Made by a program: the position numbers and the translations under genes | Shown here: in pieces, positions 1 through 12,259 of the stretch | Position numbering within the stretch: the first letter of the stretch is position 1 | Layout of the letters: each line of letters opens with the position of its first letter | Assembly (NCBI GenBank): GCA_965140415.1 | Contig: OZ223209.1 | Coordinates: 1,152,001 to 1,216,000, forward strand | Source: Myxococcota bacterium | Lineage (GTDB): Bacteria > Myxococcota_A > SURF-8 | Length of the DNA: 64,000 nt | Direction of reading: 5' to 3' | Notes under the pieces: generated by a model | Seen by the model: the letters and a program-made list of their open reading frames with translations, nothing else | Told to the model about the DNA's origin: nothing | The model's database searches: none

Positions 1-500
1 TGCATCAGAAAGACGCCGTGCTCGTTCGCCAGCAGGAAGGCGGGAGTTTCCATGTGGCTCGGTCGCGGTCGGAAGGGAATCCGAAAGATGGCATCGGCGC
101 GCAGCTTGCTTTCCAACACGGGATCCAGCGCCTCGGCCTCAAGCGTGTACACCTTTGTCACGACTTGATCGAGAATGTCCTCCTGGCTGGCGACCTCTTC
201 GGCTGCCTGTGGGCGGTCTATCGTGGCGGGCAGCGTCGGCAACGGTTTTCCTTCCGCATCCACGGCGACCAGATCATCACGATTGATCGCGTCTCCATCA
301 TCATTAATATAGAGCGCCGCCGTGCAGCCGGCGCTTAAAAGAAAACGCCCATCCCGCGTGAGATGGGCACTGGCGCATTCGTCGCCGTTTTCATCCAGTG
401 CAATCCGGCGCTTGAAGCCGTTCAGGCGTTTGCGGTCGATGGGGACGAGGACGAAGCGGGAGACGCGCTCCTCATAGTTGATCTCGATGCTTTGGGTCAT
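1..500 (-). CDS. Hypothetical protein, runs off the window start (MTQSIEINYEERVSRFVLVPIDRKRLNGFKRRIALDENG...)
   Basis: Translated by hand: ATG at 500-498, preceded by GGAGGAG. The frame stays open to position 1 and is co-directional with the neighbouring small genes. It is absent from the ORF track because no stop falls inside the window. Confidence 0.7.
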   Translation of the reverse strand, partial: MTQSIEINYEERVSRFVLVPIDRKRLNGFKRRIALDENGDECASAHLTRDGRFLLSAGCTAALYINDDGDAINRDDLVAVDAEGKPLPTLPATIDRPQAAEEVASQEDILDQVVTKVYTLEAEALDPVLESKLRADAIFRIPFRPRPSHMETPAFLLANEHGVFLM

Positions 501-502
501 GA

Positions 503-727
503 CTACTCCTCCCCGTCCGATTCCACAGCGTGAGGTTCCACGATCGCGAACACATCCATGCCAGGCACCAGAGAAAGCGAGCGACCGCTATCCCACTTTA
601 CAATAATCTGGGCGAGCGGCCCCTCGGTGACCTCGATGACCACTCCCTCGGATCCCGGCGGTATCGGATCGGGATCGTCAGGCATTTCGATCAGGCGAAT
701 CCGATCTCCCTTGCGTACCGTCGTCAT
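503..727 (-). CDS. DUF4314-domain protein
   Basis: Pattern GDRIRLIEMPDDPDPIPPGSEGVV...QIIVKWDSGRSLSLVPGMD is typical of DUF4314 in mobile elements. Confidence 0.8.
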   Translation of the reverse strand: MTTVRKGDRIRLIEMPDDPDPIPPGSEGVVIEVTEGPLAQIIVKWDSGRSLSLVPGMDVFAIVEPHAVESDGEE

Positions 728-730
728 GGC

Positions 731-1291
731 TTATTCCTCCACTTTGTCAAAGTGGAAGCTGGCGATGGTTTCGCCTTCCACTGCAGGCTTTTGGTCGTCC
801 TCGAAGCCGGTCCATGCCTTCTGCTCTTCGGACGCATCGGTTTGCGTGGCCTTTGCCTTTCGGCTCCGTTTGGGCTTGTCGACTTTCTCACTCTTTGCTT
901 TCCCCTCGACTTTGGTCGGGACAGGCTTGGTTTTCGGCTCCAGGTATTTCTTCTCCGTGGCGGGAAGTGGCAGTCGATCCGACATTCCCTGCTCCTTCCA
1001 CCAGACCAGCGCCGAACGCACAATGCGCCGGATCTGCAGCACGCTGGCCTCGGCGCGGGGTTTCATACCATCCTTACCCGCCTGCATGGTGGCCGCCTCG
1101 CTTTTGAAAAACTTGTCCACATGCAGCGGCAGGATTTTAGCAACATCCTTGTCCTCGCCCATCTCGGTGACGAGCAGATCGAGCGTGCGCTTGGCCGTGC
1201 CGATGGTGGACGGCTTTTTACCGATGCTTTTCAGATGATCCAGATACTTTTCGCAGGCTTCCTTCAGGTTCATGTTCGTTTTCTTCGTCAT
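731..1291 (-). CDS. Stand-alone integrase core-binding (SAM-like) domain protein with a Lys-rich tail
   Basis: LKEACEKYLDHLKSIGKKPSTI...VLQIRRIVRSALVWW resembles the N-terminal helical domain of tyrosine recombinases. No catalytic R-H-R-Y domain follows. Confidence 0.55.
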   Translation of the reverse strand: MTKKTNMNLKEACEKYLDHLKSIGKKPSTIGTAKRTLDLLVTEMGEDKDVAKILPLHVDKFFKSEAATMQAGKDGMKPRAEASVLQIRRIVRSALVWWKEQGMSDRLPLPATEKKYLEPKTKPVPTKVEGKAKSEKVDKPKRSRKAKATQTDASEEQKAWTGFEDDQKPAVEGETIASFHFDKVEE

Positions 1292-1297
1292 TATGGT

Positions 1298-1489
1298 TCA
1301 GTCCTCCTGTTTGGGGTTGAGTGCGCGCCGCAGCTTGGCGGCGGTCTTGATGCGGACCTCGCGGCCCGTAGTGGTATTGACGCCGGTCCAGCCACCGTTG
1401 AAGTGCTCGTCCTTCAGGCGAACCGGAACCAGCTTGCCGGATACTTTGACCAGATAGGTCTTGCCGAGTGTCACGTCTTTCTTCTTCAT
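1298..1489 (-). CDS. Small basic phage-type hypothetical protein
   Basis: 63 aa, GGAGG RBS, tightly packed in the leftward operon. Confidence 0.7.
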   Translation of the reverse strand: MKKKDVTLGKTYLVKVSGKLVPVRLKDEHFNGGWTGVNTTTGREVRIKTAAKLRRALNPKQED

Positions 1490-1498
1490 GCTCGCCTC

Positions 1499-1717
1499 CT
1501 ATTTTTCGTCTGTTTTCAGAATCGCGCGGGCTCTGGCTTCCGCTTTGATGAAACGGCGGTGGGCTTTCTCCTCCACGCGCCGGGCCTTCTCGAATTCCTC
1601 TTTCGCCAGCTCCGTCTCGACACCTGCCAGCGCCAGTTCCCGCTCGGCTTCGCCCACTTCACGCAAGATGGCCTCGCGTTCGCTTTCGTGCTTCCTGTCG
1701 TTTTCCGTGTTCGTCAT
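1499..1717 (-). CDS. Small coiled-coil hypothetical protein
   Basis: 72 aa, rich in E/A/R/K, GAAGGAG RBS. Confidence 0.65.
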   Translation of the reverse strand: MTNTENDRKHESEREAILREVGEAERELALAGVETELAKEEFEKARRVEEKAHRRFIKAEARARAILKTDEK

Positions 1718-1732
1718 GCTCGATACTCCTTC

Positions 1733-1894
1733 TCAGTCTTCGTTGTCGGGGATGGTGACGAAGCGTCCGATGTTTTCGGCCCAGTGCATGGTGATGCCGT
1801 ACTTGTTGACGTAGGTGTCGCCGTGGATGTCGTGCAGAGCTTGCAGATGCAGGCTGCTCATTTCACCGAGCGCCATGTAGCGGGCAAATGCCAT
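1733..1894 (-). CDS. Small hypothetical protein (53 aa, MAFARYMALGEMSSLH...)
   Basis: Translated by hand. The stop lies immediately before the RBS of the next gene. Shorter than any ORF in the track. Confidence 0.45.
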   Translation of the reverse strand: MAFARYMALGEMSSLHLQALHDIHGDTYVNKYGITMHWAENIGRFVTIPDNED

Positions 1895-2018
1895 TTTTTC
1901 AAACGGACGGACCGTGTCGCCGCATGGATGTACAGGGGAAACCGCCGGCGCGCCCGTTTCGAAGATTCCCTGACTATTGAGGGATGAAAGGCTTCTTTAC
2001 TCCGATGGAGACAAGCAA

Positions 2019-2375
2019 ATGAACTCTCCCGTTCGTAAAACAGAAACCAACTTGCCAGAGTTCTCCGAAGCCCGGCAACGGCTGCTCACTCTGTGCTGCG
2101 AGATCCATTTCGGTCGCATCGGAGCATTCGATATCCGGGACGGCGAGCCGGTTTTCGAACCCGCGCCAAACGTCATGCGCGAGATCAAGTTCAATGGGGA
2201 GCATGCAAATCCGGCCAAACGCAACGGTGAGATTACGTTGCGCAACCAGAGCACAGAGCTTTTCGCCTGGTTCGACCGTCTGCGAAACGCGCATGTCCAT
2301 TATCTGGAGGTCAAGCACGGTCTTCCCTTCAAAATGAACGTGCGACACGATCCCGATCAACCCAAACAACGCTAA
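2019..2375 (+). CDS. Hypothetical protein of integrative elements
   Basis: GGAG RBS before ATG 2019. Two internally similar halves (FDIRDGEP / LEVKHGLP). First gene of the rightward replication unit. Confidence 0.65.
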   Translation: MNSPVRKTETNLPEFSEARQRLLTLCCEIHFGRIGAFDIRDGEPVFEPAPNVMREIKFNGEHANPAKRNGEITLRNQSTELFAWFDRLRNAHVHYLEVKHGLPFKMNVRHDPDQPKQR

Positions 2376-2523
2376 ACCGCCTGTACAGGCTCACCCCTAA
2401 GGAGAAGCCGTTGCCCGAGCACCAAGTCAGAAACATCAAGTATGAACGGATTGAGCACCGTTGTTTGCGTTGCCGCCTTGTGGATGGCGCGCCACGTACG
2501 TCCACTATCCGGTGGGGCTCGCC

Positions 2524-5500
2524 ATGAAGGCTGAGTCCCAGGCCATCCCGAAGCGCTTCGAGGGCATCGTCCGCGCCTTTTTGCAGGTTTTTTTCCGCGG
2601 CCGGGCGGATGTCTTCGCCTATCTCTATAATGGTGGGAACGGAAAAAACTACTATCAGTTTCAGTGCTCGAATCTCTTCGATCCCTCCTTCTGCGGCAAA
2701 TCGCGGAAATTCAATGGGAGAAAAGTCCCCTGTGCCGAATGTAAAAGTCGTGAATTTCGCCCGATAAATCAGAAGGACGTATATCTGCACCTGCGCGGTG
2801 AGAAACCTATCGGCTGCTATCCGCTGGTCCCTCAAGTGGAACAGGACGGAAGCGTAATCAAAAACGCCGCCTTTCTGGCCGCACTCGACATCGACGACCA
2901 TGAAAACGGCCGGCCCATCCCCGGCAAGGATGCCCGGAGGGACATGCTGAAGCTGCATGAAACGCTTCGGCAGGCGGCCATTCCTCATCTAGTGGAGCGC
3001 TCCAAGAGCGCGACCGGCTTCCACATCTGGATCATCCTGGACAAGGCCCTGCGCGCCTCGCTGCTGAGAGCCGTGATCCTGACGGTGGTACGAAAGTCAG
3101 GCATCGTGGACAAGGGCTATCCCACCAGTTTCGACCGCATGTTTCCGGCCCAGGATGAATTGAAGGACGACCAGGATCTGGGCAACCTGATCTTGACGCC
3201 CTTGTGCAACCGCTACATGCCGAAAGGTGGCGCGCTCTTTCTGGACCCGGCCAACCATTTCGAACCTTATCCCATACCTGAGCAGAAAGGGTTGCTCCTG
3301 GACCTGGCCGGACAGTTGGGAAACGGCGGCGGCCCGCTGGTCTGCCCGGTGTCGCGCATCGAGGAGCTGGCAGGGGAATGGAAGATCGATGAAACGAAGC
3401 GGAAGCGTTTGCGGACGAAGAGCGCGCCGATGAAACTTCCGGCCACCGCCTCCGAAAGGGAAACCCTCAAACCTTATGGGGCAGAGACCTGCCTGGTGCA
3501 TTGCGCGTTTCTGCAGCACTGCCGCGATGCCAGCGCCTCCCTTTCCGAGCCGCGCTGGATGGCCATGATCAGCAATCTGTGCCGCTTTGCCGACGGTCCG
3601 GCGCTGATTCACGAGCTGTCCAAAGGCTATCCGGCCTACAGCCCGGCGGAGACGGACGCCAAGATTGCTCATCTTTCAACATCCTCTGGTCCGGTCACCT
3701 GTGAGGTTATTCAGAGCGAGGGCTTTGACGACTGTCCGGAGGGCGGCTGCGGGGTGAAAGCCCCGGCGGTGCTGGCGATCACCTATCGGACCGAACGCAT
3801 CGACCGGCTCGTCGAGCAGTTGACACTGGCGGACGGCGGCGCGCCGTCGGAGGAAACCATTGAGCTGCTGCTGCTCGAACTGAGCGCGCTCGGCAAGGAG
3901 GATCTCCCCAAATACAAGAAGCTGACCCTGGAGAAACTGCCCACCTTGAAGCTCGGCGACCTCGACAAGACGCTGGCCGCCCTGCGCAAGCGGCGCAAGG
4001 ACCAGACGGAGGCGCTGCCGGGCTACCGCATCGAGGACAACGGCTATTTTAAACGGCATGTCGATGAGGAGGGCAACGAGCACTGGACCCGCTTCACCAA
4101 CTTCGTCATCAACCTGGAAACCGACAAGCAGTACCTCGACGAAGTGGAAAGCCATCGCCGCATCGAAGGGCATATCCTGACGGAGGATAATACACGCTGT
4201 CCCTTCCACATCTCCGGCCGGGATTTCAACAACAACCCGCGTTTCGCCGAGGCCATCGGCGAGCAGGGAGGCGTGAGCTGTCGTTTCTGGAACAAGGAGC
4301 TTGGCGATGTCCGCCGGGCAACTCAGGAATTGAGCCGGCCCGTTTCCATTACGGCCTATACGCGCATCGGTTTTCTGATCGATGGTGAGGATCGATTTTT
4401 TACGCCATCCGTTGTCATCTCGTCGGCGGGCATCGCCCAAAACACGGAGACGGTGATCGACCTCTCCGAGGTTGAGCACGCCCGGCATCTGGATTTTTCG
4501 ATTCTGGACGAGGCGACCTTCCAGGCCACCTGCCGCCACATCGTGGACGACCTCCTGGACTTGACCGACCATTTCGTGACCTATCCGCTGGCGGGTCACA
4601 CCTTCATTTCTCCGTTCCTCTCGCGACTGGACACCTCGCCGCTGTCGTCCGGCGAGCGCTGCATCCTGTGGATCACGGGAATCACCGGATCGAGCAAGAG
4701 CTTCGCCGCTCTGCGTTTCGCCAACTTCTTCGGCTCTTTCCACGTCGGTAAGAGCGTGAATTCCTGGACCAGCACGCCCTATCAGATCCAACGGGTCGGG
4801 CATCATCACGCCGACGCCCTGTTTCTGGTCGATGATTTCAAGGCGAAAAACCTCTCCGGCCGCACGGAGCAGGTGACGCAGATCCTCCAGGCCTACGCCG
4901 ACGGACGCGGTCGCGGCCGACTGAACAGCGACGCCTCGGTCAAGGCGACCTATGTCATCCGAGGCAACCTGCTGGTGACCGGCGAGGATCTGCCGGATTA
5001 CGAGTCGTCGAATCTGGCGCGCATGATCGTGGTCCACACCAGCAGCCGGGAGAAGGACACGCGCCGGGGCCGCGCCTGCCTCAAGCATCAGGTGAACTAC
5101 CGGGGCGTGACCCCGGCCTTTTTGCATTTCGTCATCTCCAGGTCCGGCTGGTTCGACGATCTCATCGCCCGCATCGATGCGGCCACCGATCACTTCCACC
5201 GCGACATTGAAGAGGCCTCCAACGGCCTGCGCATCGCCCGTAACTACGCCCTGAACCAGGTCGGTTTCGATCTCTTCGTCGAGTTTTTGTGTGCCACGGG
5301 AACGATCAGCGAGACGAAGCGGGATGCCATGATGGCCGAGCATGGGGAGATTCTTCTCGCCTCGCTGGACGAACATGTTCAGCGGGTAAGCGACGAGCAG
5401 GCGGACAACGTCTTTTTAAGCGTCCTGGCTGATCTGCTGCAAAGCGGGCGGGCGGTGTTGCACGAGCCGGGACACACGGTAGGCGGCGGATTCTCCGAGC

Positions 5501-5811
5501 GGGAAGCGAGACCCGAGGATCTTCGAAACGTCATTGGCTTTCTGAAACCTGGCGACGGACATGCCTATGTCTATCCCAAGCTGGCGGTGGGCGAGGTGCA
5601 GAAATCGCTGCGGGACACGGGCGGCTGGCTCGGCTTTTCGGTGAAAGCCATCGGCAAGCAGCTGGCGGCCGAGGACTACCTGGCTAATTCGGATGAACAG
5701 AGGACGACGACGACGGTTCGTCATATGGGAAAGATCCATCGAATCTGGAAAATCAGCAAACATCATCTGGGTCTCGAAGATCGGGGGGACGACGATGAAA
5801 TCCCATTTTAA
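2524..5811 (+). CDS. AEP-family (TOTE-type) primase fused to a PriL-like Fe-S domain and a C-terminal P-loop helicase
   Basis: N-terminus FRGRADVFA...HLRGEKPIGCYPL...LDIDDH...ERSKSATGFHIW (AEP motifs I and II). Cys cluster CAFLQHC...PVTCEVI...CPEGGC. Walker A-like GITGSSKS and Walker B FLVDDF. Start ATG 2524 preferred over TTG 2461. Confidence 0.85.
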   Translation: MKAESQAIPKRFEGIVRAFLQVFFRGRADVFAYLYNGGNGKNYYQFQCSNLFDPSFCGKSRKFNGRKVPCAECKSREFRPINQKDVYLHLRGEKPIGCYPLVPQVEQDGSVIKNAAFLAALDIDDHENGRPIPGKDARRDMLKLHETLRQAAIPHLVERSKSATGFHIWIILDKALRASLLRAVILTVVRKSGIVDKGYPTSFDRMFPAQDELKDDQDLGNLILTPLCNRYMPKGGALFLDPANHFEPYPIPEQKGLLLDLAGQLGNGGGPLVCPVSRIEELAGEWKIDETKRKRLRTKSAPMKLPATASERETLKPYGAETCLVHCAFLQHCRDASASLSEPRWMAMISNLCRFADGPALIHELSKGYPAYSPAETDAKIAHLSTSSGPVTCEVIQSEGFDDCPEGGCGVKAPAVLAITYRTERIDRLVEQLTLADGGAPSEETIELLLLELSALGKEDLPKYKKLTLEKLPTLKLGDLDKTLAALRKRRKDQTEALPGYRIEDNGYFKRHVDEEGNEHWTRFTNFVINLETDKQYLDEVESHRRIEGHILTEDNTRCPFHISGRDFNNNPRFAEAIGEQGGVSCRFWNKELGDVRRATQELSRPVSITAYTRIGFLIDGEDRFFTPSVVISSAGIAQNTETVIDLSEVEHARHLDFSILDEATFQATCRHIVDDLLDLTDHFVTYPLAGHTFISPFLSRLDTSPLSSGERCILWITGITGSSKSFAALRFANFFGSFHVGKSVNSWTSTPYQIQRVGHHHADALFLVDDFKAKNLSGRTEQVTQILQAYADGRGRGRLNSDASVKATYVIRGNLLVTGEDLPDYESSNLARMIVVHTSSREKDTRRGRACLKHQVNYRGVTPAFLHFVISRSGWFDDLIARIDAATDHFHRDIEEASNGLRIARNYALNQVGFDLFVEFLCATGTISETKRDAMMAEHGEILLASLDEHVQRVSDEQADNVFLSVLADLLQSGRAVLHEPGHTVGGGFSEREARPEDLRNVIGFLKPGDGHAYVYPKLAVGEVQKSLRDTGGWLGFSVKAIGKQLAAEDYLANSDEQRTTTTVRHMGKIHRIWKISKHHLGLEDRGDDDEIPF

Positions 5812-5839
5812 TGATCATTCCTTAAGCCTTTGCATTCGT

Positions 5840-5980
5840 ATTACCGCGCCGTCACCGCTTCCGTCACCGGTTTTTGGAGGATTTATGTCGTTGAAAATAA
5901 TGGATATTATGAGGTTGTTCGAGATTCCGTGTCACCACTCACCGGTTACATGCGGTTACATCGGTGACGTTTGCGGTGAC
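5840..5980. repeat. Iteron-like hexamer array (putative replication origin)
   Basis: GTCACC at 5851, 5863 and 5931, with variants near 5840 and 5938. Inverted copies GGTTAC/GGTGAC at 5944, 5954, 5963 and 5975. AT-rich stretch at about 5871-5910. Confidence 0.65.
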
Positions 5981-6087
5981 AGCCCATCCTGGATCAGGGC
6001 GACGGCTCCTCCGCCGCTGGCAAAATCACGGCGCATTCAGGATCACGCCTGGCCCTGCACCCAACTATCCGAAACGAGGAGAAAGCC

Positions 6088-6957
6088 ATGAGCAAAACCG
6101 AAAAAACGTCCCGTTCCCCCGGCATAAACCCCCACGCCCGGCCCTGCGCGGCGACGAGCAAAAAGACGGGCAAGCCCTGCGCCAACCCCGCAGTTGCGGG
6201 AAGCGATTTCTGCCGCATGCACGGCGGCAAGGGGTTGGAAGTTGCGGAAGCGACCTCTGAAACGAACGCCAAAGCGCAGAAAACCGACCAAGCCAACTCA
6301 TCTCACAGACGCGGCGCACGCCCAGGCAACAAAAACGCAGTCACCCACGGGGCCTATGCGTTGACGCTGCTGCCCGAGGAGCAGGCGATCTATGAGCAAA
6401 AACAGGCGCAGTTTCTCGCCGAAATCGGCGCGGCGGACGTTTTTGATCGCCAAGTTATTCACGTGCTGTCCCTCATCGCAGCCAAACTGGATCTGGCGGC
6501 GGCCAAAGGTGCGCCCGCCGAGGCTTTGATTCCGATCTCCAACGAGATCCTTAAACTCTTGCGCTCACTGAAGGAAACGCGCGATTCACGCGACGTGCGA
6601 GAGGAAAACCTGCCCAGAACCGCAGCCGATTTCCTGAACGAATTGATCGAGCGGGATCGCGAGCGAGGCGTGACGGTGAGTGAGGAGGCCTTGCTGACCC
6701 GCGTTTATGAACTGGAACGCGAAATCAACGATTTGCGCACCCGGTTGAACATGGAGCCTCGCCCGGACATCGCCCACCGGATGGACACGTGCTCGCATTG
6801 CCGGCGTGAAACGGAACAGCGCCTTAAGGCGAACAGCCTGTGGGTCTGCCTGCGCTGCGGCTGGGCGATGGAGGAGCGGAAGGCGGACATCGAAACGCAC
6901 ACCGTCGAGGAATCCGCCATTCCCCAAACATCGGTATCTGAGTTGAACGGAGATTGA
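6088..6957 (+). CDS. Terminase small subunit-like protein (HGGxSTG-type Zn motif, C-terminal Zn ribbon)
   Basis: CAATSKKTGKPC...CRMHGG, RGARPGNKNAVTHGAY and CSHC...CLRC. Overlaps the TerL start. Confidence 0.7.
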   Translation: MSKTEKTSRSPGINPHARPCAATSKKTGKPCANPAVAGSDFCRMHGGKGLEVAEATSETNAKAQKTDQANSSHRRGARPGNKNAVTHGAYALTLLPEEQAIYEQKQAQFLAEIGAADVFDRQVIHVLSLIAAKLDLAAAKGAPAEALIPISNEILKLLRSLKETRDSRDVREENLPRTAADFLNELIERDRERGVTVSEEALLTRVYELEREINDLRTRLNMEPRPDIAHRMDTCSHCRRETEQRLKANSLWVCLRCGWAMEERKADIETHTVEESAIPQTSVSELNGD

Positions 6958-8537
6958 TCATGGAAACCTTGTCGCAAACGCCAAACGCCGATAACGGGAT
7001 GCTTTTCGAAAACGAAGCTCCGATGAGCCGTCTGCCCCACCTGATCCGGCACAGCCCCGCTGCCTGGGGCGCGCTGTTTCTGAAAGATCGGGACAGCGGC
7101 CCGCGCCGCTATCGCTGGTACCAGCGGGAGGACCTGGAGTGCCAGGCAACGCGTGTGATTCACCTCGATGGCCGCGCCGTGGGAAAGACGATCAATCTGA
7201 GCACGTATCTCCTGTGGTTTGCGTCGGTCAATAAAGGGAAGTCCGTGCTGGTCGGCGCGCCGTATCAGGGGCATCTCGATACGATCATCGAGGAGGTGGA
7301 ATTCCAAATCCACCATGTGGAGGCGCTGAAGAACAGCCTCTCCGCCGATTCCAAACAGCCGGGAATCAGGCGCAAGCCGTATTTTCAACTGCGGTTCACC
7401 AACGGCTGCATGGTCTATTTCCGTCCCGCCGGGACGGACGGCGACGCTTTCCGCTCGCTGCACGTTGATCTGATCCTGCTCGATGAAGCCGCCTGGCTGC
7501 CGGAACTCGCCTGGACCACCGTTTTTCAGTACCTTAACCCCGGCGGAACGCTGCGGGTTTATTCGACGCCGAACGGCCTCCGAAACCGCACGTTTTACAA
7601 ACTGACCCAGAGCAAAAACTGGACGCTGTTTCACTGGCCAAGCTGGATCGTCCCCGACTGGAACGACGAGCGTAGAAAAGAATTGCTCGATTTTTACGGC
7701 GGCGAGCACTCATCCGGCTGGCTGCACGAGGCGGCAGGCGAGCACGGCATGCCATCGTATGGCGTGTTCAATCCCGCCCAGGTCATGCAGGCGCTGACCG
7801 ATGGGCTGGATTATCAGCTCGTGCGCCTGGACGGCGATCTGTTTGCCGATTGCGCGGATGAAGCCGAAACGCGTACACGGATGGAGCTGCTGGCCGGTCT
7901 GGACGGCGGCCAGGGGACTTACTGGTTGGGTGTAGATACCGGCTACGCCTCCGATCCAAGCGAACTGCTGCTCTTCGAGGAGGACGAAAACGAAGTACTG
8001 ACGCTCGTGGTGCGCATTCACGCCGAGCATCTGCCGTACCCCCTGCTTAGCGAACTGATCCATCTTTTGGACCAATTGTATTCCCCCGCCGGGATCGGTC
8101 TGGATCGCGGCGGCAACGGCACCGCCGTCGAGCACGAACTCCTGCGCCTGGACAAGTACCGCACGGCAGGTTTTGCCGGAAAGTTAGTCGGCGTCGATTT
8201 CGGCGGCTCGACGATGGTGGGCGAAGACAAAGACGGCCAGCCTGTGAAGAAGCGGACCAAGGAGCACATGACGGCGCTGATCAACCGGGCGCTCAACGCC
8301 CGCAAGCTGCGTCTGCCGAAGGAGGACCGCGAGATCGAGGATCAGCTGTGCACCCATACCTACATCCGCTCCGAGCGCGGCATCGTCTATTCGAAGGGCA
8401 ACGACCACATTATCGACGCCTTGCGCTGTGCGCTGTACGCCCGCGATCGGGAAACCGGGGAAGGGTATGATCCGGTGTTTATCACCCCGGAATGGCCGGG
8501 ATTTTACCCCGTTACCCTGCCCTGGGACCGCAACTGA
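6954..8537 (+). CDS. terL: Terminase large subunit
   Basis: Walker A GRAVGKT, Walker B ILLDEAA, coupling motif STPNG, nuclease motifs LGVDTG, GLDRGG and NDHIIDALR. Confidence 0.9.
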   Translation: MIMETLSQTPNADNGMLFENEAPMSRLPHLIRHSPAAWGALFLKDRDSGPRRYRWYQREDLECQATRVIHLDGRAVGKTINLSTYLLWFASVNKGKSVLVGAPYQGHLDTIIEEVEFQIHHVEALKNSLSADSKQPGIRRKPYFQLRFTNGCMVYFRPAGTDGDAFRSLHVDLILLDEAAWLPELAWTTVFQYLNPGGTLRVYSTPNGLRNRTFYKLTQSKNWTLFHWPSWIVPDWNDERRKELLDFYGGEHSSGWLHEAAGEHGMPSYGVFNPAQVMQALTDGLDYQLVRLDGDLFADCADEAETRTRMELLAGLDGGQGTYWLGVDTGYASDPSELLLFEEDENEVLTLVVRIHAEHLPYPLLSELIHLLDQLYSPAGIGLDRGGNGTAVEHELLRLDKYRTAGFAGKLVGVDFGGSTMVGEDKDGQPVKKRTKEHMTALINRALNARKLRLPKEDREIEDQLCTHTYIRSERGIVYSKGNDHIIDALRCALYARDRETGEGYDPVFITPEWPGFYPVTLPWDRN

Positions 8538-8597
8538 AAAATGTATGAACGACTGTCGGCGTTCGACGTCATTCACGTTAACAAAGGAGGAACGACA

Positions 8598-9203
8598 ATG
8601 CCCTGTTATTACGAATTCATGGTGGAGCGTTTGGATTTTCGGCCAATCACCTGGCAACGCTTTCTGTTTCGCGCGAATTTGACCTTCGAAGACTTGCATC
8701 AAGCCATCCAGGCGGCCGCCGGATGGAGCGACAGACACGCCTACCGATTCTGGTCGATTGAGGGAGATCTCATCACCCGAAAGGACCATCCCTCCCTGGA
8801 AGCATGGCACGCCGCCACTGGAGATCGGACACCCATCGGAGCGTATTTCTGTCTGGACGACTCCGTCAAATCCGACGATCCCGACAGATATCCGCCGCCG
8901 CCGCCAGATATCTGCGTATACGAATATCCGCCGGAAATCGGATTCTTCAAGGTCACCCTGCAACATCGGGTGCTGCTCGATGAGGTTTTCGAGCGCCGCC
9001 TGCTTGGCGGCGGGGGTATCTTTTCGCCGGAGATGGAAGATGTGGACGGCGACAACCATACCGTCTCTTTCGAAGAATGCACGGGGAAAACCGTGATGCA
9101 TACTTCAAACAGACACAGTGAAAGTGATAAGTCCGACCCTGTTCCCATGTGGGACTTGGCTTCCTTCAATCTTGACATGCGCAAGCTGGCGTTTGATCGA
9201 TGA
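8598..9203 (+). CDS. pRiA4b ORF-3 / IS1096 TnpR-like passenger protein
   Basis: PITWQRFLFRANLTFEDLHQAIQAAAGWSDRHAYRF matches the family pattern. GGAGG RBS before ATG 8598. Confidence 0.75.
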   Translation: MPCYYEFMVERLDFRPITWQRFLFRANLTFEDLHQAIQAAAGWSDRHAYRFWSIEGDLITRKDHPSLEAWHAATGDRTPIGAYFCLDDSVKSDDPDRYPPPPPDICVYEYPPEIGFFKVTLQHRVLLDEVFERRLLGGGGIFSPEMEDVDGDNHTVSFEECTGKTVMHTSNRHSESDKSDPVPMWDLASFNLDMRKLAFDR

Positions 9204-9276
9204 ACGTGCAGGGCGAGACATTTCAGAGATGGCTGGATTCCCATTTGAACACAGTCACGATTCTGGCGAGGCGTTC

Positions 9277-9534
9277 ATGAATCACTCCGTCTTATGCAAC
9301 GACAACCAGGTGAATCGCCGAACAATGGCCATTCAACCTTTCGGCCACGGTCCTTACTCTCCTTTTCCGGCTTGCTCCGAGATCGTCGATCTGCTCGCCA
9401 CCGCCTGCCTGCGTCATCGCAAGCGCGAGGCTGTAAAATGGGTGAAAGAAAAAACAGAGAAAACCCTTGATGATGTCGCCCAACGAGGGAAGCTCCGGAC
9501 GACGGAGAATCGAACTCCGGAGAAAGGAGCCTGA
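9277..9534 (+). CDS. Short hypothetical protein upstream of DUF2924
   Basis: Contains an EIVDLLATACLR helix and stops 1 nt before the DUF2924 start. Start codon uncertain. Confidence 0.35.
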   Translation: MNHSVLCNDNQVNRRTMAIQPFGHGPYSPFPACSEIVDLLATACLRHRKREAVKWVKEKTEKTLDDVAQRGKLRTTENRTPEKGA

Positions 9535-9535
9535 T

Positions 9536-10042
9536 ATGACAAGCAAACCCGGTGGACGACAACGTGACACCATCCTGCATCAACTGGCGGAGCTTGAATC
9601 CCTGCCCACAGCCGAATTGAAGAAGCGCTGGAACGTGCTCTATGGCCAGGAGCCGCCGCGCTTCAACCGACAATTTCTGATCAAACGCCTGGCCTACAGG
9701 ATTCAGGAAATCGCCTATGGTGGAGTCGACGATCGAACGCGGACCCGAATGAATGACCTCCTTGAAGATGAGGGTTATGACGAGTTGGGGCGAAAAGGCC
9801 GCAAACCGACTCGTCGGGCCTCCGAACGCGCCATCGTGCCGGGTACGGTTCTGGTTCGCGAATGGCAAGGGGAGCGCCATGAGGCGGTCGCCATGGACGA
9901 TGGAGGTTTTGAGCATCGCGGCATACCCTATCGCTCCCTCTCAGCGGTGGCGCGGGCCATCACCGGTACACGCTGGAATGGCCCGGCGTTCTTCGGATTG
10001 CGAGGCAAGACGGTTCCATTGAAGGAGGCCGCTCGTGATTAG
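9536..10042 (+). CDS. DUF2924-domain protein
   Basis: LAYRIQEIAYGG, PGTVLVREWQG and YRSLSAVARAITGTRWNGPAFFGL are the family signature. AAGGAG RBS. Confidence 0.9.
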   Translation: MTSKPGGRQRDTILHQLAELESLPTAELKKRWNVLYGQEPPRFNRQFLIKRLAYRIQEIAYGGVDDRTRTRMNDLLEDEGYDELGRKGRKPTRRASERAIVPGTVLVREWQGERHEAVAMDDGGFEHRGIPYRSLSAVARAITGTRWNGPAFFGLRGKTVPLKEAARD

Positions 10043-11597
10043 GGACCCAAAGCAAGACAACAACAATCCGATCATTCGTTGCGCTATCTACACGCGCAAA
10101 TCAACCGACGAGAATTTGGACTCTGACTTCAACAGTTTGGATGCCCAGCGAGAGTCTTGCGAGCATTTCATCCAGTCCCACGCACGCGAGAACTGGCATG
10201 CGCTCGACGCCCGATACGACGACGGAGCGTATTCAGGCGCAAGCATGGAGCGCCCGGGACTGAAACGGCTGCTGGCAGACATTGAGGACGGCAAGGTGGA
10301 CTGCGTTGTGGTCTACAAAATTGACCGGCTGTCGCGATCCATCGCGGATTTTACGCGCATGATGGAGTTTTTCAAACACCGCGATATCACCATGGTCAGC
10401 GTGACCCAGGCCTTCAACACGAACACATCCAGCGGGACGCTCATGGTGAATTTATTAATGACGTTCGCCAGTTACGAACGCGAGGTCATTGCCGAGCGCA
10501 TCCGGGACAAAGTAGCCGCCAGCAAGAAACGAGGCAAATATATGGGTGGTGTCCCACCCCTTGGCTACGATGTGGATCGCGACAGAAAACGGCTGGTCGT
10601 GAATTCCGAGGAAGCCGCACTGGTGCGATTTATCTTCCGTCGTTACCTTCAATTGCATTCCGCCGTAGCGCTCATCAAAAAGTTGAACGGAAAAGGCCTG
10701 ACCACCAAGTCATGGGTAACGAAAAAGGGCATTCATCGGAAAGGCCGCGCCTGGAACAAATCGCACATCTATCGCCTGCTGAACAACCCAATCTACGCAG
10801 GCAAGATCAAACACAAGGATCGGCTCTATGAGGGCGAACACGAGGCGATTATCGAAAAGTCTTTATGGGATGAGGTGCAGTCGACGATCGGATCCGAGGG
10901 AAAAGCAGGAATTCGGCATAATGACACCTTGTCGCCGTTAAAGGGGATTCTTGTCTGCGGTCACTGCCGCAAACCGATGGGAGCCACATTCACAACAAAG
11001 GACGGCAAGCGCTACCGCTATTACCTCTGCCAACAGGCGGGAAAATCCAGTTACGACAGCTGTCCGATTCGTTCCGTACCAGCCGGAGATCTGGAAAACC
11101 TGGTGCATATTCAGGTCAGGCGTATGCTCGGCTCCACCGAGATCGCCGCCGAAACCTTCCGGGAACTGGTGAAACGGGAAGCCGAGACGGTAAAGAAACT
11201 TGAACAGCAGACCGACAAGCTGAGAGAGGAACTATCAACACTGCAATCCGCTCGTAAGCGACTGATCGAACCTGGGGAGGGAGCATCAAAACTTGTGGCA
11301 GAGGAGCGGATCGGAATCGAAGAGAAAATCAATCATCTTACGCTTCAGCTTGCAAGCATGGATGCCGAACGCGAATTCTACGACAACAATCTGATCAGCG
11401 AACATGAATTGGCGGCGGAACTTCAGCACTTGGATACCCTCTGGAATGAACTCTTTCCCGGTGAAAAGACACGGATTATCAAGCTGCTGGTGGATGAGAT
11501 CATCGTGAATAAAGACGGGATCGACATTGCGTTGAAGCCGACTGGTGTCGAAGGAGTTGCGTTGGAGATGTCGGGAGGACCACATGCACAACTGTGA
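10035..11597 (+). CDS. Large serine recombinase (resolvase + recombinase + Zn ribbon + coiled coil)
   Basis: CAIYTRKST (catalytic Ser), VYKIDRLSRS, ERIRDK...GGVPPLGYD, CGHC...YYLC...C. Confidence 0.95.
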   Translation: MIRDPKQDNNNPIIRCAIYTRKSTDENLDSDFNSLDAQRESCEHFIQSHARENWHALDARYDDGAYSGASMERPGLKRLLADIEDGKVDCVVVYKIDRLSRSIADFTRMMEFFKHRDITMVSVTQAFNTNTSSGTLMVNLLMTFASYEREVIAERIRDKVAASKKRGKYMGGVPPLGYDVDRDRKRLVVNSEEAALVRFIFRRYLQLHSAVALIKKLNGKGLTTKSWVTKKGIHRKGRAWNKSHIYRLLNNPIYAGKIKHKDRLYEGEHEAIIEKSLWDEVQSTIGSEGKAGIRHNDTLSPLKGILVCGHCRKPMGATFTTKDGKRYRYYLCQQAGKSSYDSCPIRSVPAGDLENLVHIQVRRMLGSTEIAAETFRELVKREAETVKKLEQQTDKLREELSTLQSARKRLIEPGEGASKLVAEERIGIEEKINHLTLQLASMDAEREFYDNNLISEHELAAELQHLDTLWNELFPGEKTRIIKLLVDEIIVNKDGIDIALKPTGVEGVALEMSGGPHAQL

Positions 11598-12039
11598 TGG
11601 AACAGAGGCACTTTCGAGGCCAAAGGCAACTGCCAGCAAGCCCGATAAAAGGCAAAGAGTTTATCGGGACAAGCGCGGGCGATTGATCGTTCATATCCCG
11701 ATGAACCTGAAAAAACGGGGGGGTCGTAAAGAGATTGTGCTTCCACATGGCTCTGATCCCAACAGCCTCAATGACGCAACTTCACTCAATCGACCACTGG
11801 CGCTGGCCGTGGCTCTCGGGCATCGCTGGTTGGACCTGCTGACCGAGGGACGATTCGGTTCCGTGCAGGAACTGGCCGAAACGATCGGTATGGATCCGTC
11901 ACAAGCACGGCGGCATTTGAGTCTGGCCTGCCTTCCACCCAAACTTGTCCGGGCAATACTGAACGGCAAGGAGCCAGAGGGTTTGTCGGTGGAAGAATTA
12001 CAGAAAGTTTCTCTAAACTGGCACGAACAGGAAGAATAG
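11584..12039 (+). CDS. HTH-containing accessory protein of DUF2924-recombinase modules
   Basis: LKKRGGRKEIVLP, SVQELAETIGMDPSQARRHLSLACLPPKLVRAILNG. Confidence 0.75.
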   Translation: MHNCDGTEALSRPKATASKPDKRQRVYRDKRGRLIVHIPMNLKKRGGRKEIVLPHGSDPNSLNDATSLNRPLALAVALGHRWLDLLTEGRFGSVQELAETIGMDPSQARRHLSLACLPPKLVRAILNGKEPEGLSVEELQKVSLNWHEQEE

Positions 12040-12259
12040 TGGATCACTTAAAGGCATGTCGGTAAAACTCTTCAAGTGATCGGAAGTAACTTATACACAT
12101 ATCCCGCATGGTCATCCACTCGCCGAAGGTGGTTCTCGTTTCGATCCATATAGCCTCCTTCCAGAAGTTATCTTTGTGTTATTGCTCAGTTATTGTTGTC
12201 ACCCGTATCACCCCATGATATCCTTACGCTACGAAATTCCAGAAGGCTGGAGAATACTC

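Follow-up and report, generated by a model that had tools for sequence, protein, structure and literature searches.

This study describes a mobile island of approximately 22.6 kb in a Myxococcota chromosome (host genome size 5.98 Mb) that carries genes for replication, DNA packaging, end joining and integration, and in which no portal, capsid, tail or lysis gene was detected with Pfam and PHROGs. The analyzed stretch of 64,000 nucleotides, here called the window, contains the right half of the island, with the block from the primase to the small HTH gene at 2461-12039; in window coordinates, the whole island extends from about -10.6 kb to +12.05 kb. The gene content and its intactness are established, as is the fact that this architecture recurs in relatives. 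The best explanation is that the ancestors of the element were temperate tailed phages of a widespread family, from which it has kept integration, replication, packaging and end joining. That it is a helper-dependent satellite bringing its own terminase has, in our judgement, an even chance of being correct. The features in and beside the right half are as follows.

1..500, continuing to window -138, minus strand: 5' part of u212, a 212-aa gene that always adjoins the Ku-like gene
503..727, minus strand: DUF4314 protein (PF14192, E 5e-16)
731..1291, minus strand: stand-alone SAM-like DNA-binding domain protein, as found at the N-terminus of tyrosine integrases (phrog_1, residues 4-120, E 5.1e-8)
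1298..1894, minus strand: three small genes (63, 72 and 53 aa; reading frames) heading the leftward operon
1977..2375, plus strand: 132-aa gene at the head of the rightward operon, divergent from the leftward operon
2461..5811, plus strand: AEP primase-polymerase domain (PF22548, E 1.5e-40, residues 42-271), then a P-loop NTPase region
5812..5997, no strand: iteron region, two GTCACCG pairs flanking an AT-rich core, directly 3' of the replication gene
6088..6957, plus strand: TerS-like protein with a zinc ribbon at each end (weak TerS matches)
6954..8537, plus strand: full-length TerL (phrog_2 3.7e-25; Terminase_6N 1.3e-5)
8541..9203, plus strand: pRiA4b ORF-3-like gene at the portal position of the relatives (PF07929, PRiA4_ORF3, 3.5e-9, N-terminal 50 residues only)
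9467..10042, plus strand: DUF2924 protein, first gene of the integration module (PF11149 2.8e-47)
10035..11597, plus strand: large serine recombinase, the integrase (Resolvase 1.2e-36, Recombinase, Zn_ribbon_recom; phrog_95 1.7e-124)
11545..12039, plus strand: small HTH protein (phrog_14161 1.6e-26)
12040..12175, no strand: right end of the island; third-position G+C drops from 0.57-0.76 to 0.49 and a host GDSL lipoprotein gene follows

The preliminary description of this DNA had reported primase-helicase, origin, terS, terL, pRiA4b-like gene, DUF2924 and serine recombinase as contiguous and intact, and all were recovered in place with open frames. All reading frames of the element are intact, and its genes overlap or abut. 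The left end had been placed outside the window, in agreement with the extent given above, and inspection of the upstream contig, as had been proposed, revealed no structural genes in the 20 kb to the left. The island also stands out by base composition: third-position G+C is 0.62-0.80 in its interior, versus 0.42-0.53 and 0.49 in the host neighbours on the left and right, respectively. The two junctions have no repeat of at least 10 bases in common, as expected of a serine integrase, and no tRNA gene was found in the 20-kb locus L114. Five family genomes yielded no homologue of a 133-aa frame located at the left junction, and in the nearest genome with both flanking host genes (G006) their orthologues lie 207 kb apart. 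Public data were searched as assembled contigs; the source organism was present in two samples, and neither an excised circle nor an empty site was found in these contigs.

The replication protein was also matched by the PADLOC PrimPol model (7.3e-27) and by PDB entry 7nqd (4.2e-5). Behind the AEP domain, a P-loop (GITGSSKS) and a Walker-B-like motif (LFLVDD) were read by eye in the translation, and the true start of the gene may lie a few codons further downstream. Proteins encoded behind RecD in complete Myxococcota prophages are 29-38% identical to it. The literature searched gave no match for the 'TOTE' system that the Pfam entry mentions. The iteron region is the probable replication origin: GTCACCG occurs 18 times in L114 with 2.7 copies expected, and none of 200 shuffles reached 18. 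In SaPI-type islands the origin is located right behind the replicase gene. An inverted copy of the iteron region, 85% identical, lies at window -9328..-8984, 3' of a second AEP-family gene. This second copy was considered as a common promoter upstream of the PrimPol-helicase gene and rejected, because its strand places it 3' of the gene. The 132-aa gene has homologues in four related prophage loci and no family match in Pfam or PHROGs, and the 63-, 72- and 53-aa genes are 90%, 81% and 54% identical to genes of the related locus L004, in the same order. The SAM-like protein has no catalytic domain; in 54 of 74 related loci a homologue lies just ahead of terL and is encoded on the other strand, and the DUF4314 gene is conserved beside it in related prophages.

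The TerS-like protein gave only weak family matches (phrog_1889 1.3e-5; phrog_10899 2.9e-5; NCBIfam TerS_not_xtmA 6.7e-6, below its cut-off). The frame extends 4 bases into the start of terL, and alignment with six terL-joined homologues revealed a conserved GNxNAxxHG motif and CxxC pairs. The profile of the TerL clade matches T4 gp17. Of 101 residues invariant across 60 prophage TerLs, the TerL of the window keeps 94, which is within the 93-95% retained by divergent prophage TerLs when these are left out singly. The terL dN/dS analysis suggested in the preliminary description gave pairwise values of 0.23-0.35 within the clade (the L010 row, read in the wrong frame, was left out), with dS of 0.9-1.7 near saturation, and the ratio spans the whole history of the gene and not only the time since portal loss.

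The family to which TerL belongs is widespread and consists of complete temperate tailed prophages. It is 48-64% identical to the TerLs of this uncultured family (e.g. the Syntrophus buswellii prophage, L039 plus L081) and about 60% identical to those of complete prophages in sister genomes; complete relatives, which are possible helpers, occur in G009, G011 and G013, genomes from the same family and order. Two closer relatives, 83% and 72% identical (P0002 and P0003), are known as proteins only, and the nearest TerL of a cultured phage, Microcystis phage MACPNOA1, is 30% identical. The element shares with these prophages a TerS-like protein and, ahead of terL and on the other strand, the SAM-like and DUF4314 genes; with the Myxococcota members it also shares the AEP replication protein. 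However, the prophages continue with portal, MuF, an 800-aa DNA methyltransferase, scaffold and major capsid, and also encode neck, sheath, tube, tape measure and endolysin, all of which the window lacks. A portal gene comes after TerL in 56 of the 58 genome loci and in all 55 viral contigs with at least 3 kb downstream. The absence of a portal after terL, pointed out in the preliminary description, was confirmed: a 12-portal profile, run at maximum sensitivity on six frames of window 8300-9700, scored below zero. The pRiA4b-like gene that occupies this position is without homologues in the related loci. The architecture of the window is absent from all 64 IMG/VR contigs with a related TerL, and the search for circular forms and virome copies that had been recommended came back empty in these and in the assembled contigs. 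In the whole host genome, TerL is present as a single copy, and no match was obtained to PF04860 or PF05065, or to the portal, MuF, methyltransferase, capsid and sheath proteins of the TerL family itself. For the families searched, the host genome appears to hold no helper of this phage family.

Relatives were collected by a TerL alignment scan of genome contigs, a single-protein scan having given no matches; as TerL was the query throughout, its retention among the relatives is partly a result of the collection method. The TerL of the window belongs to a distinct Myxococcota clade comprising seven loci whose terS is joined to terL (SH-aLRT 93; the frameshifted long-branch row L028 also falls here). 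This clade is sister to ten complete Myxococcota prophages and has long end branches (0.26-0.68). Among 401 Myxococcota genomes, only 3 had a TerS of the terL-joined type, and a metagenome scan with the TerS alignment retrieved three contigs of 2.4-4.2 kb that end too early to show the genes after terL. Five of the seven clade members are portal-less, namely the window, G011 near 3166 kb, G009 C3 near 1021 kb, L014 and L031 (the last with only 1.9 kb of flank), and a Ku-ligase operon lies within 10 kb in four of the seven. L004 and L008 keep a portal. According to the preliminary description, the satellite would be refuted if the closest relatives all had a head-tail block between terL and DUF2924. 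No relative has such a block, but the sister locus L004 has a portal gene, and nothing else, at this place, and the wider family almost always has the portal after terL. Relative to L004, the 132-aa gene, the small HTH gene and everything between them are inverted in the window. Decay is visible in other members: at G009 C3 the ligase gene is split and insertion sequences are present, in L014 terL is directly followed by tyrosine recombinase genes and an IS91-type transposase, and the TerL near G011 2970 kb is truncated.

As neither a helper nor an excised form nor packaged DNA turned up, and as several relatives are decayed, the element may be a defective prophage remnant. A phage of the clade with joined terS and terL would have lost all genes after terL by deletion or replacement, and what is left would be maintained in the chromosome by its defence and toxin-antitoxin genes and would have ceased to move in virions. 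The near-universal portal in the family, its persistence in L004 and L008, the decay of other clade members and the lack of a helper in the genome, of a circle in assembled contigs and of a virome copy all fit this explanation, and the AbiE pair could stabilize a dead element. We nevertheless consider it rather unlikely, as the element shows intact, closely packed frames and no portal debris, TerL has kept its conserved residues over a long end branch, and the replication, origin, integration and end-joining modules are all retained. Moreover, the same reduced gene set occurs in at least three other loci at 53-79% protein identity, which indicates an old state and not a recent accident. The preliminary description had offered a satellite and a cleanly deleted prophage side by side; the largely portal-less clade, the intact frames, the constraint on TerL, the element's own primase and iteron origin and the Ku-ligase operon favour the former, but a helper, an excised or a packaged form has not come to light.

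The left half of the island contains SoFic-like, AbiE and PrimPol-helicase defence genes and an operon in which a 237-aa protein is encoded beside a LigD-like ligase fused to a Cdc48-like ATPase. The 237-aa protein is predicted to have a Ku fold. Its model has a pLDDT of 94.5 (fold of the 275-aa frame with 59 sequences aligned; with 5 sequences pLDDT was 33) and matches bacterial Ku 9i91_A, 8v53_B and 9vnq_A with a Foldseek probability of 1.00 and a TM of about 0.5; Ku of M. tuberculosis and B. subtilis is matched at this probability. There were 48 PDB matches at E <=0.001, and all matches listed are Ku chains; the best viral structural match is Ku of Mycobacterium phage Dylan (E 3.6e-5). None of the 59 family members has a Pfam match, and no sequence similarity to Ku families was detectable. 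The fold search reveals a divergent Ku family missed by Pfam, which was found in 42 of the 301 Myxococcota genomes searched. The ligase domain matches DNA_ligase_A_M (5.1e-10) and DNA_ligase_A_C (3.6e-11) above the Pfam cut-offs and the NHEJ model TIGR02779 at 3e-20 (72.6 bits, below the curated cut-off of 227.75), and a KIDGE motif was read by eye in its translation. It gave no match to the LigD polymerase and phosphoesterase domains; instead, the Cdc48/VCP-like AAA domain is fused to it. Homologues of u212 lie beside the Ku-like gene in every related locus. A profile comparison of u212 with the Ku-like family was weak (hhalign probability 42%), its profile had no significant match in the PDB (E 0.02), and the ESM Atlas had no usable match for the 275-aa and 212-aa proteins. 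The 212-aa, 132-aa and small genes and the pRiA4b-like gene were counted as being without family match and could in principle belong to a small but complete virus with structural proteins that have diverged beyond recognition. This is most improbable: only a few short genes are unassigned, the largest conserved unknown takes a Ku fold and not that of a capsid protein, and relatives in the TerL clade use ordinary, recognizable portal and MuF proteins.

In the G011 elements, L004 and L051, the recombinase gene has DUF2924 as its neighbour and is followed by the small HTH gene, which possibly encodes a directionality factor; DUF2924 is a neighbour of the recombinase in L008 as well. PICIs, cf-PICIs and P4 mostly use tyrosine integrases, whereas the integrase of the element is a large serine recombinase accompanied by DUF2924. 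Public contigs from two further organisms contain the integration module (window 9437-11996) at about 95% identity. In G011, the Ku-ligase operon and the recombinase module form a 9.8-kb multi-copy element without terminase (at least six copies, 88-98% nucleotide identity), which implies that spread within a genome does not need TerS-TerL. The multi-copy unit, the recombinase module occurring alone in other organisms, the wealth of defence genes in the island and the inversion relative to L004, which fits modular reshuffling, would suit an integrative Ku-ligase element, with the recombinase module and the Ku-ligase operon as its mobile core, that captured phage replication and terminase genes as cargo; TerS-TerL would then hinder the packaging of related phages as a means of defence and would not serve to move the element. 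We regard this as unlikely. A full, constrained TerL with nuclease and ATPase residues, a joined TerS and an adjoining origin make up a set for packaging the element's own DNA. In addition, the proposal overlaps with that of a satellite, because interference and self-transfer are coupled in known satellites, as far as these are treated in PMC10085698.

If the element is a helper-dependent satellite, growth of a related phage in the cell would lead to its excision and to replication from its own origin. TerS would then recognize the DNA of the element, and TerL would dock on the helper portal and fill helper procapsids. In the new cell, the Ku-like protein and the ligase would close the linear DNA, after which the serine recombinase would integrate it; the Ku-ligase operon makes sense for DNA that arrives as a linear molecule. 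A more far-reaching proposal, which we put forward tentatively and hold to be somewhat less probable than not, is that such elements form a separate satellite class, so far seen in one Myxococcota order, with their own TerS and TerL motor and Ku-ligase kit, dependent on helper procapsids, portal and tails and derived by stepwise reduction. As part of this proposal, the series would run from complete phage via terminase plus portal (L004) and terminase only (window) to the terminase-less 9.8-kb G011 element. The relatives would represent a natural step series of a phage shrinking into a hitch-hiking element.

Known satellites, in the accounts available, either redirect the helper terminase by TerS or a similar factor or build their own capsids. 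The PICI core comprises an integrase, alpA/merR/stl regulation, a primase-replicase and a small terminase (main points of PMC10085698). Compared by gene content with the SatelliteFinder core set (the integrase being called from Pfam/PHROGs and not from SatelliteFinder profiles), the element has integrase, primase-replicase and small terminase, the last with weak family matches. It resembles PICIs of the SaPI type as an integrated island with integrase, putative regulators, primase-replicase, TerS and defence genes and without capsid, tail and lysis genes, going by the PICI features reported there. However, it differs by its full TerL, which the same text treats as a mark of cfPICIs, by the Ku-ligase operon, by its host phylum Myxococcota and by its size (22.6 kb versus a PICI median of 9.5 kb, with only 17 of 1435 PICIs at 20-28 kb in the figures accessible). 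Both terminase subunits are also encoded by cfPICIs and by MulchRoom and MiniFlayer of Streptomyces, which according to the portions at hand of PMC10085698 and PMC10690885 have their own major capsid, portal and head-tail adaptors or connectors and take tails alone from the helper. In contrast, the element has no major capsid, portal, adaptor or connector genes. No Pfam or PHROGs match in the element points to PLE or P4-like satellites. An element with only the motor, if real, would fill a gap between PICIs and cfPICIs and raises the testable question of whether a foreign TerL works on the portal of a helper.

The closest parallel to the end-joining genes is found in Cluster O mycobacteriophages (Corndog, Dylan), which also carry a Ku-fold protein. 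In Corndog, an AAA ATPase gene lies in the same leftward region as the Ku-like gene, and the genome is apparently recircularized by end joining with the help of the phage Ku (PMC4351075, citing Pitcher 2006, for the parts of that article seen here). The element differs in that it also brings the ligase, fused to the ATPase, and the two proteins together suggest how arriving DNA is re-closed. Regarding regulation, no match to AlpA, MerR or Stl was seen in the element of the window, and a Cro/CI-type HTH gene is located at window -4325..-3996. In L014 and in the G011 locus near 3166 kb, MerR and LexA-like genes precede terS.

The preliminary description listed replication, terminase and integration genes at 2019-12039, and this list was confirmed: eight features follow one another on the plus strand at 2461-12039. 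The window covers 1152001-1216000 of a single contig of 5.98 Mb, of which the 40 kb to the left were also inspected (negative coordinates count bases left of the window start). From 1894 down to -10588 every gene lies on the minus strand. Read 5' to 3', these leftward genes start with three small genes, a stand-alone SAM-like protein, DUF4314 and a 212-aa protein, followed by a 275-aa call (more likely 237 aa in truth), a 1039-aa ATP-dependent DNA ligase/AAA ATPase fusion, a Cro/CI-type HTH gene and IHF/HU. The remaining leftward genes and the right half are as follows.

Leftward, after the IHF/HU gene, minus strand: AbiEi (PADLOC 8e-64)
Leftward, after AbiEi, minus strand: AbiEii (PADLOC 9.8e-102)
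Leftward, after AbiEii, minus strand: AEP-helicase, 814 aa (PF22548 1.2e-98; PADLOC PrimPol 3e-88)
Leftward, last gene, left end of the island, minus strand: Fic protein (PADLOC SoFic 1e-30)
2461-5811, plus strand: 1116-aa AEP protein, residues 42-271 an archaeo-eukaryotic primase domain (PF22548 1.5e-40)
5812-5997: iteron region, non-coding
6088-6957, plus strand: TerS-like protein, 289 aa (four PHROGs TerS families, weak, 1.3e-5 to 8.4e-3)
6954-8537, plus strand: TerL (phrog_2 3.7e-25; Terminase_6N 1.3e-5)
8541-9203, plus strand: pRiA4b-like protein (PRiA4_ORF3 3.5e-9, first 50 positions of the family only)
9467-10042, plus strand: DUF2924 protein (2.8e-47)
10035-11597, plus strand: large serine recombinase
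11545-12039, plus strand: small HTH protein (phrog_14161 1.6e-26)

Third-position G+C is 0.62-0.80 in the island, 0.42-0.53 in the chemotaxis genes (MCP and CheW) beyond -10.6 kb and 0.49 in a GDSL lipoprotein gene on the right. Because it drops in the host genes on both sides, the island is taken to measure about 22.6 kb. The AEP protein at 2461-5811 is also recognised as PrimPol by PADLOC (7.3e-27), matches PDB chain 7nqd at 4.2e-5 and, as seen by eye in the translation, has a P-loop (GITGSSKS) and LFLVDD C-terminal to its primase domain. The TerS-like protein matches NCBIfam TerS_not_xtmA at 6.7e-6, under the cut-off of that model, and its frame shares 4 bases with terL.

Locus L114, 20 kb long, has 18 copies of the heptamer GTCACCG, compared with 2.7 expected, and 14 of them fall in two regions. 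The first (5812-5997), directly 3' of the AEP gene, has an AT-rich core between two iteron pairs. The second (-9328 to -8984, or 3672-4016 of L114) follows the 3' end of the other AEP-family gene directly and is an inverted copy, 85% identical, with a 166-base insert holding four further GTCACCG motifs in a hairpin arrangement; an 87-aa frame overlapping it is probably no gene. Since iterons directly follow both AEP-family genes, the island contains two units of replication gene plus iterons.

Within the 22.6 kb, structural genes (portal, capsid or tail) and lysis genes are absent, also from the left half, where the preliminary description had proposed to search for structural genes. That the island is a complete virus whose structural genes escape recognition is very unlikely. 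In the whole genome TerL is single-copy, PF04860 (Phage_portal) and PF05065 (Phage_capsid) have no match, and nothing resembles the portal, MuF, methyltransferase, major capsid or sheath proteins of the phage family that owns this TerL. The most likely reading, to which we give about an even chance, is a satellite derived from a phage, dependent on a helper and equipped with a terminase and an end-joining kit of its own. This reading is weakened by the lack of a helper of that phage family in the same genome, and neither an excised circle nor an empty site was present in assembled contigs of public runs, which weakens it as well.

Homologues of the TerL at E 1e-5 or better number at least 366, and the best 120 listed are at least 48% identical. 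The closest cultured phage, Microcystis phage MACPNOA1, reaches 30% identity. Scanning with an alignment yielded 74 loci, whose genomes carry the labels of many phyla, and 64 IMG/VR contigs. The usual order is RecD-like helicase, large primase, TerS-like gene, a short opposite-strand operon with SAM-like and DUF4314 genes, TerL, portal (phrog_2739, 2.8e-76), MuF protein (up to 1523 aa) and DNA methyltransferase (800 aa). Further on, Syntrophus buswellii has a block of scaffold, major capsid protein (phrog_2522, 9.4e-88), neck, sheath, tube, tape measure and endolysin. Among the genome loci with at least 3 kb of flank, 56 of 58 have a portal downstream of TerL (exceptions L014 and L064), and so do all 55 viral contigs with enough flank; these counts leave out 16 genome loci and 9 viral contigs too short to judge. 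The reduced architecture is absent from all 64 viral contigs with a related TerL, which weakens the satellite reading. In L064 (9450-11014, from a Desulfovibrionales MAG), TerL misses its first ~160 residues and directly adjoins a homologue of the small HTH gene, possibly through insertion of a recombinase element into terL. Separately, the complete prophage block from RecD to methyltransferase is ~96-97% identical at nucleotide level over 13-21 kb across genomes labelled as different phyla (L032, L033, L036, L037, L038, L040, L067), including Ectothiorhodospira shaposhnikovii DSM 243, Desulfofustis glycolicus DSM 9705, Desulfobulbus rhabdoformis DSM 8777 and MAGs labelled Geobacteraceae, Verrucomicrobiota and Rhodospirillaceae. 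The explanation is either recent transfer across a very broad range of hosts, or contamination/mis-binning.

TerL of this family occurs in four of 40 relatives of the window's genome (G008, G009, G011, G013), always at 64% identity or less. The copies mapped in G009, G011 and G013 are of two kinds, complete prophages (portal, MuF, methyltransferase, capsid) versus loci with terS directly joined to terL. The seven terS-joined loci (the window, L004, L008, L014, L031, G011 near 3166 kb and G009 contig C3 near 1021 kb) group together in a quick maximum-likelihood tree (SH-aLRT 93, not starred), and the frameshifted long-branch row L028 falls among them. The group is sister to ten complete Myxococcota prophages, and its end branches measure 0.26-0.68 changes per site. 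The portal after terL is missing in five of the seven and present in L004 and L008. Four (the window, L004 and the G011 and G009 loci) have the ligase operon of the window within 10 kb, with SAM-like, DUF4314, 212-aa, 237-aa and ligase-ATPase proteins 55-90% identical to those of the window. L004 reads terS, terL, portal, DUF2924, recombinase and HTH, with the operon coming next, also on that strand; inverting the stretch between the 132-aa gene and the HTH gene, both included, gives the order of the window. In the G011 and G009 loci terL converges on the Fic gene, behind which the operon lies. In the window this junction would arise only by joining the two ends of the island, and judged from sequence it would fit a circular form with an attachment site between the small HTH gene and Fic.

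It is possible, if doubtful, that the island is a prophage remnant. A profile of 12 related portals found no trace of a portal remnant at 8300-9700. The window TerL keeps 94 of 101 residues invariant in 60 other prophage-type TerLs, the other six clade members keep 93-99 of them, and divergent prophage TerLs, left out one by one, keep 93-95% of invariant residues. Within the clade, terL dN/dS is 0.23-0.35 (Nei-Gojobori; 0.23 for the closest pair, L004 and G009 C3), with dS at 0.9-1.7 or saturated; these values span the whole history, so the constraint cannot be dated to after portal loss. Several observations weaken the satellite reading. The TerS type joined to terL occurs in three of 401 Myxococcota genomes (three metagenome contigs with it are too short to help), one G011 TerL is truncated, and in G009 C3 the ligase gene is split and insertion sequences are present. 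In L014, terL is followed by two tyrosine recombinase genes and an IS91-type transposase. Moreover, the relatives were all gathered by a TerL query, a bias to loci that keep TerL. A LexA-like S24 repressor gene lies directly upstream of terS-terL in L014 (7640-9153), L098 (2223-3749) and L004 (7930-8541), in two of them together with a MerR gene; neither is present there in the window. This position hints that DNA damage switches on the packaging genes in these relatives.

The 275-aa frame had no family match in profile libraries, and its profile search gave 444 clusters of proteins of ~235 aa. The 237-aa form, modelled at pLDDT 94.5 (59 sequences), matches bacterial and eukaryotic Ku in Foldseek (probability 1.00, best E 6.5e-6, TM ~0.5), with the Ku protein of Mycobacterium phage Dylan as best viral match (3.6e-5); Pfam gives nothing in 59 members of this Ku-like family. 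The ligase domain exceeds the Pfam cut-offs for DNA_ligase_A_M and DNA_ligase_A_C and matches the NHEJ ligase model TIGR02779 at 3e-20, under its cut-off, and the C-terminal part is a Cdc48/VCP-like AAA domain (5vc7, 4.9e-116). The available text of PMC4351075 reports that the genome of the Cluster O phage Corndog is recircularised by end joining with phage Ku, and places an AAA ATPase gene in a leftward region that also holds the Ku-like gene. We infer that the operon would close the linear DNA of the element after entry.

A Ku-ligase element carrying its terminase as anti-phage cargo is a less probable alternative. A ~9.8-kb unit without terminase is repeated on contig C1 of G011 (L219-L224, L097, L085; 88-98% nucleotide identity), with DUF2924, recombinase, HTH, SAM-like, DUF4314, 212-aa, Ku-like, ligase-ATPase and Fic genes; some copies lack the recombinase module, and the Ku-like gene has nine matches in G011. 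It looks like an active integrative element without replication or packaging genes. Movement within the genome therefore needs no TerS-TerL, which weakens the satellite reading. The recombinase module (DUF2924, recombinase and HTH; 9437-11996) recurs at ~95% identity in two other organisms, on one contig of 30.6 kb from public run X3 and on two contigs from run X4, from which the rest of the island is absent; modules are thus exchanged, and this weakens the satellite reading too. The Ku-like gene occurs in 42 of 301 Myxococcota genomes, usually in single copy. In the eight such loci inspected (L211-L218, eight genomes) the trio of 212-aa gene, Ku-like gene and ligase stands alone in the chromosome, with no other element genes within 10 kb, and possibly represents an end-joining system that is divergent and unannotated.

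As far as the portions consulted go, PICIs have an integrase, regulator, primase-replicase, capsid-morphogenesis gene and TerS, typically without other phage structural genes, and terL is a distinguishing cfPICI core gene along with capsid and head-tail genes (PMC10085698). Unlike the former, the island has TerL, which it shares with the latter, but it misses the capsid and head-tail genes. Like the Streptomyces satellites it encodes a terminase, without their portal and capsid genes (PMC10690885, in part). In the corresponding excerpts, marine VEIMEs have small-subunit terminases only, the large subunit being expected from the helper (PMC9618062), and the EPIP preprint lists TerS and not TerL (PMC12822802), whereas the island has both. 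An element with TerS and TerL and nothing else is not described in these portions of the four sources; a precedent in print is possible. Elsewhere in the window's genome (contig C1, ~3797156-3812654), a second SAM-like gene (42% identity) and a further serine recombinase gene are ~14 kb apart and may mark another element.
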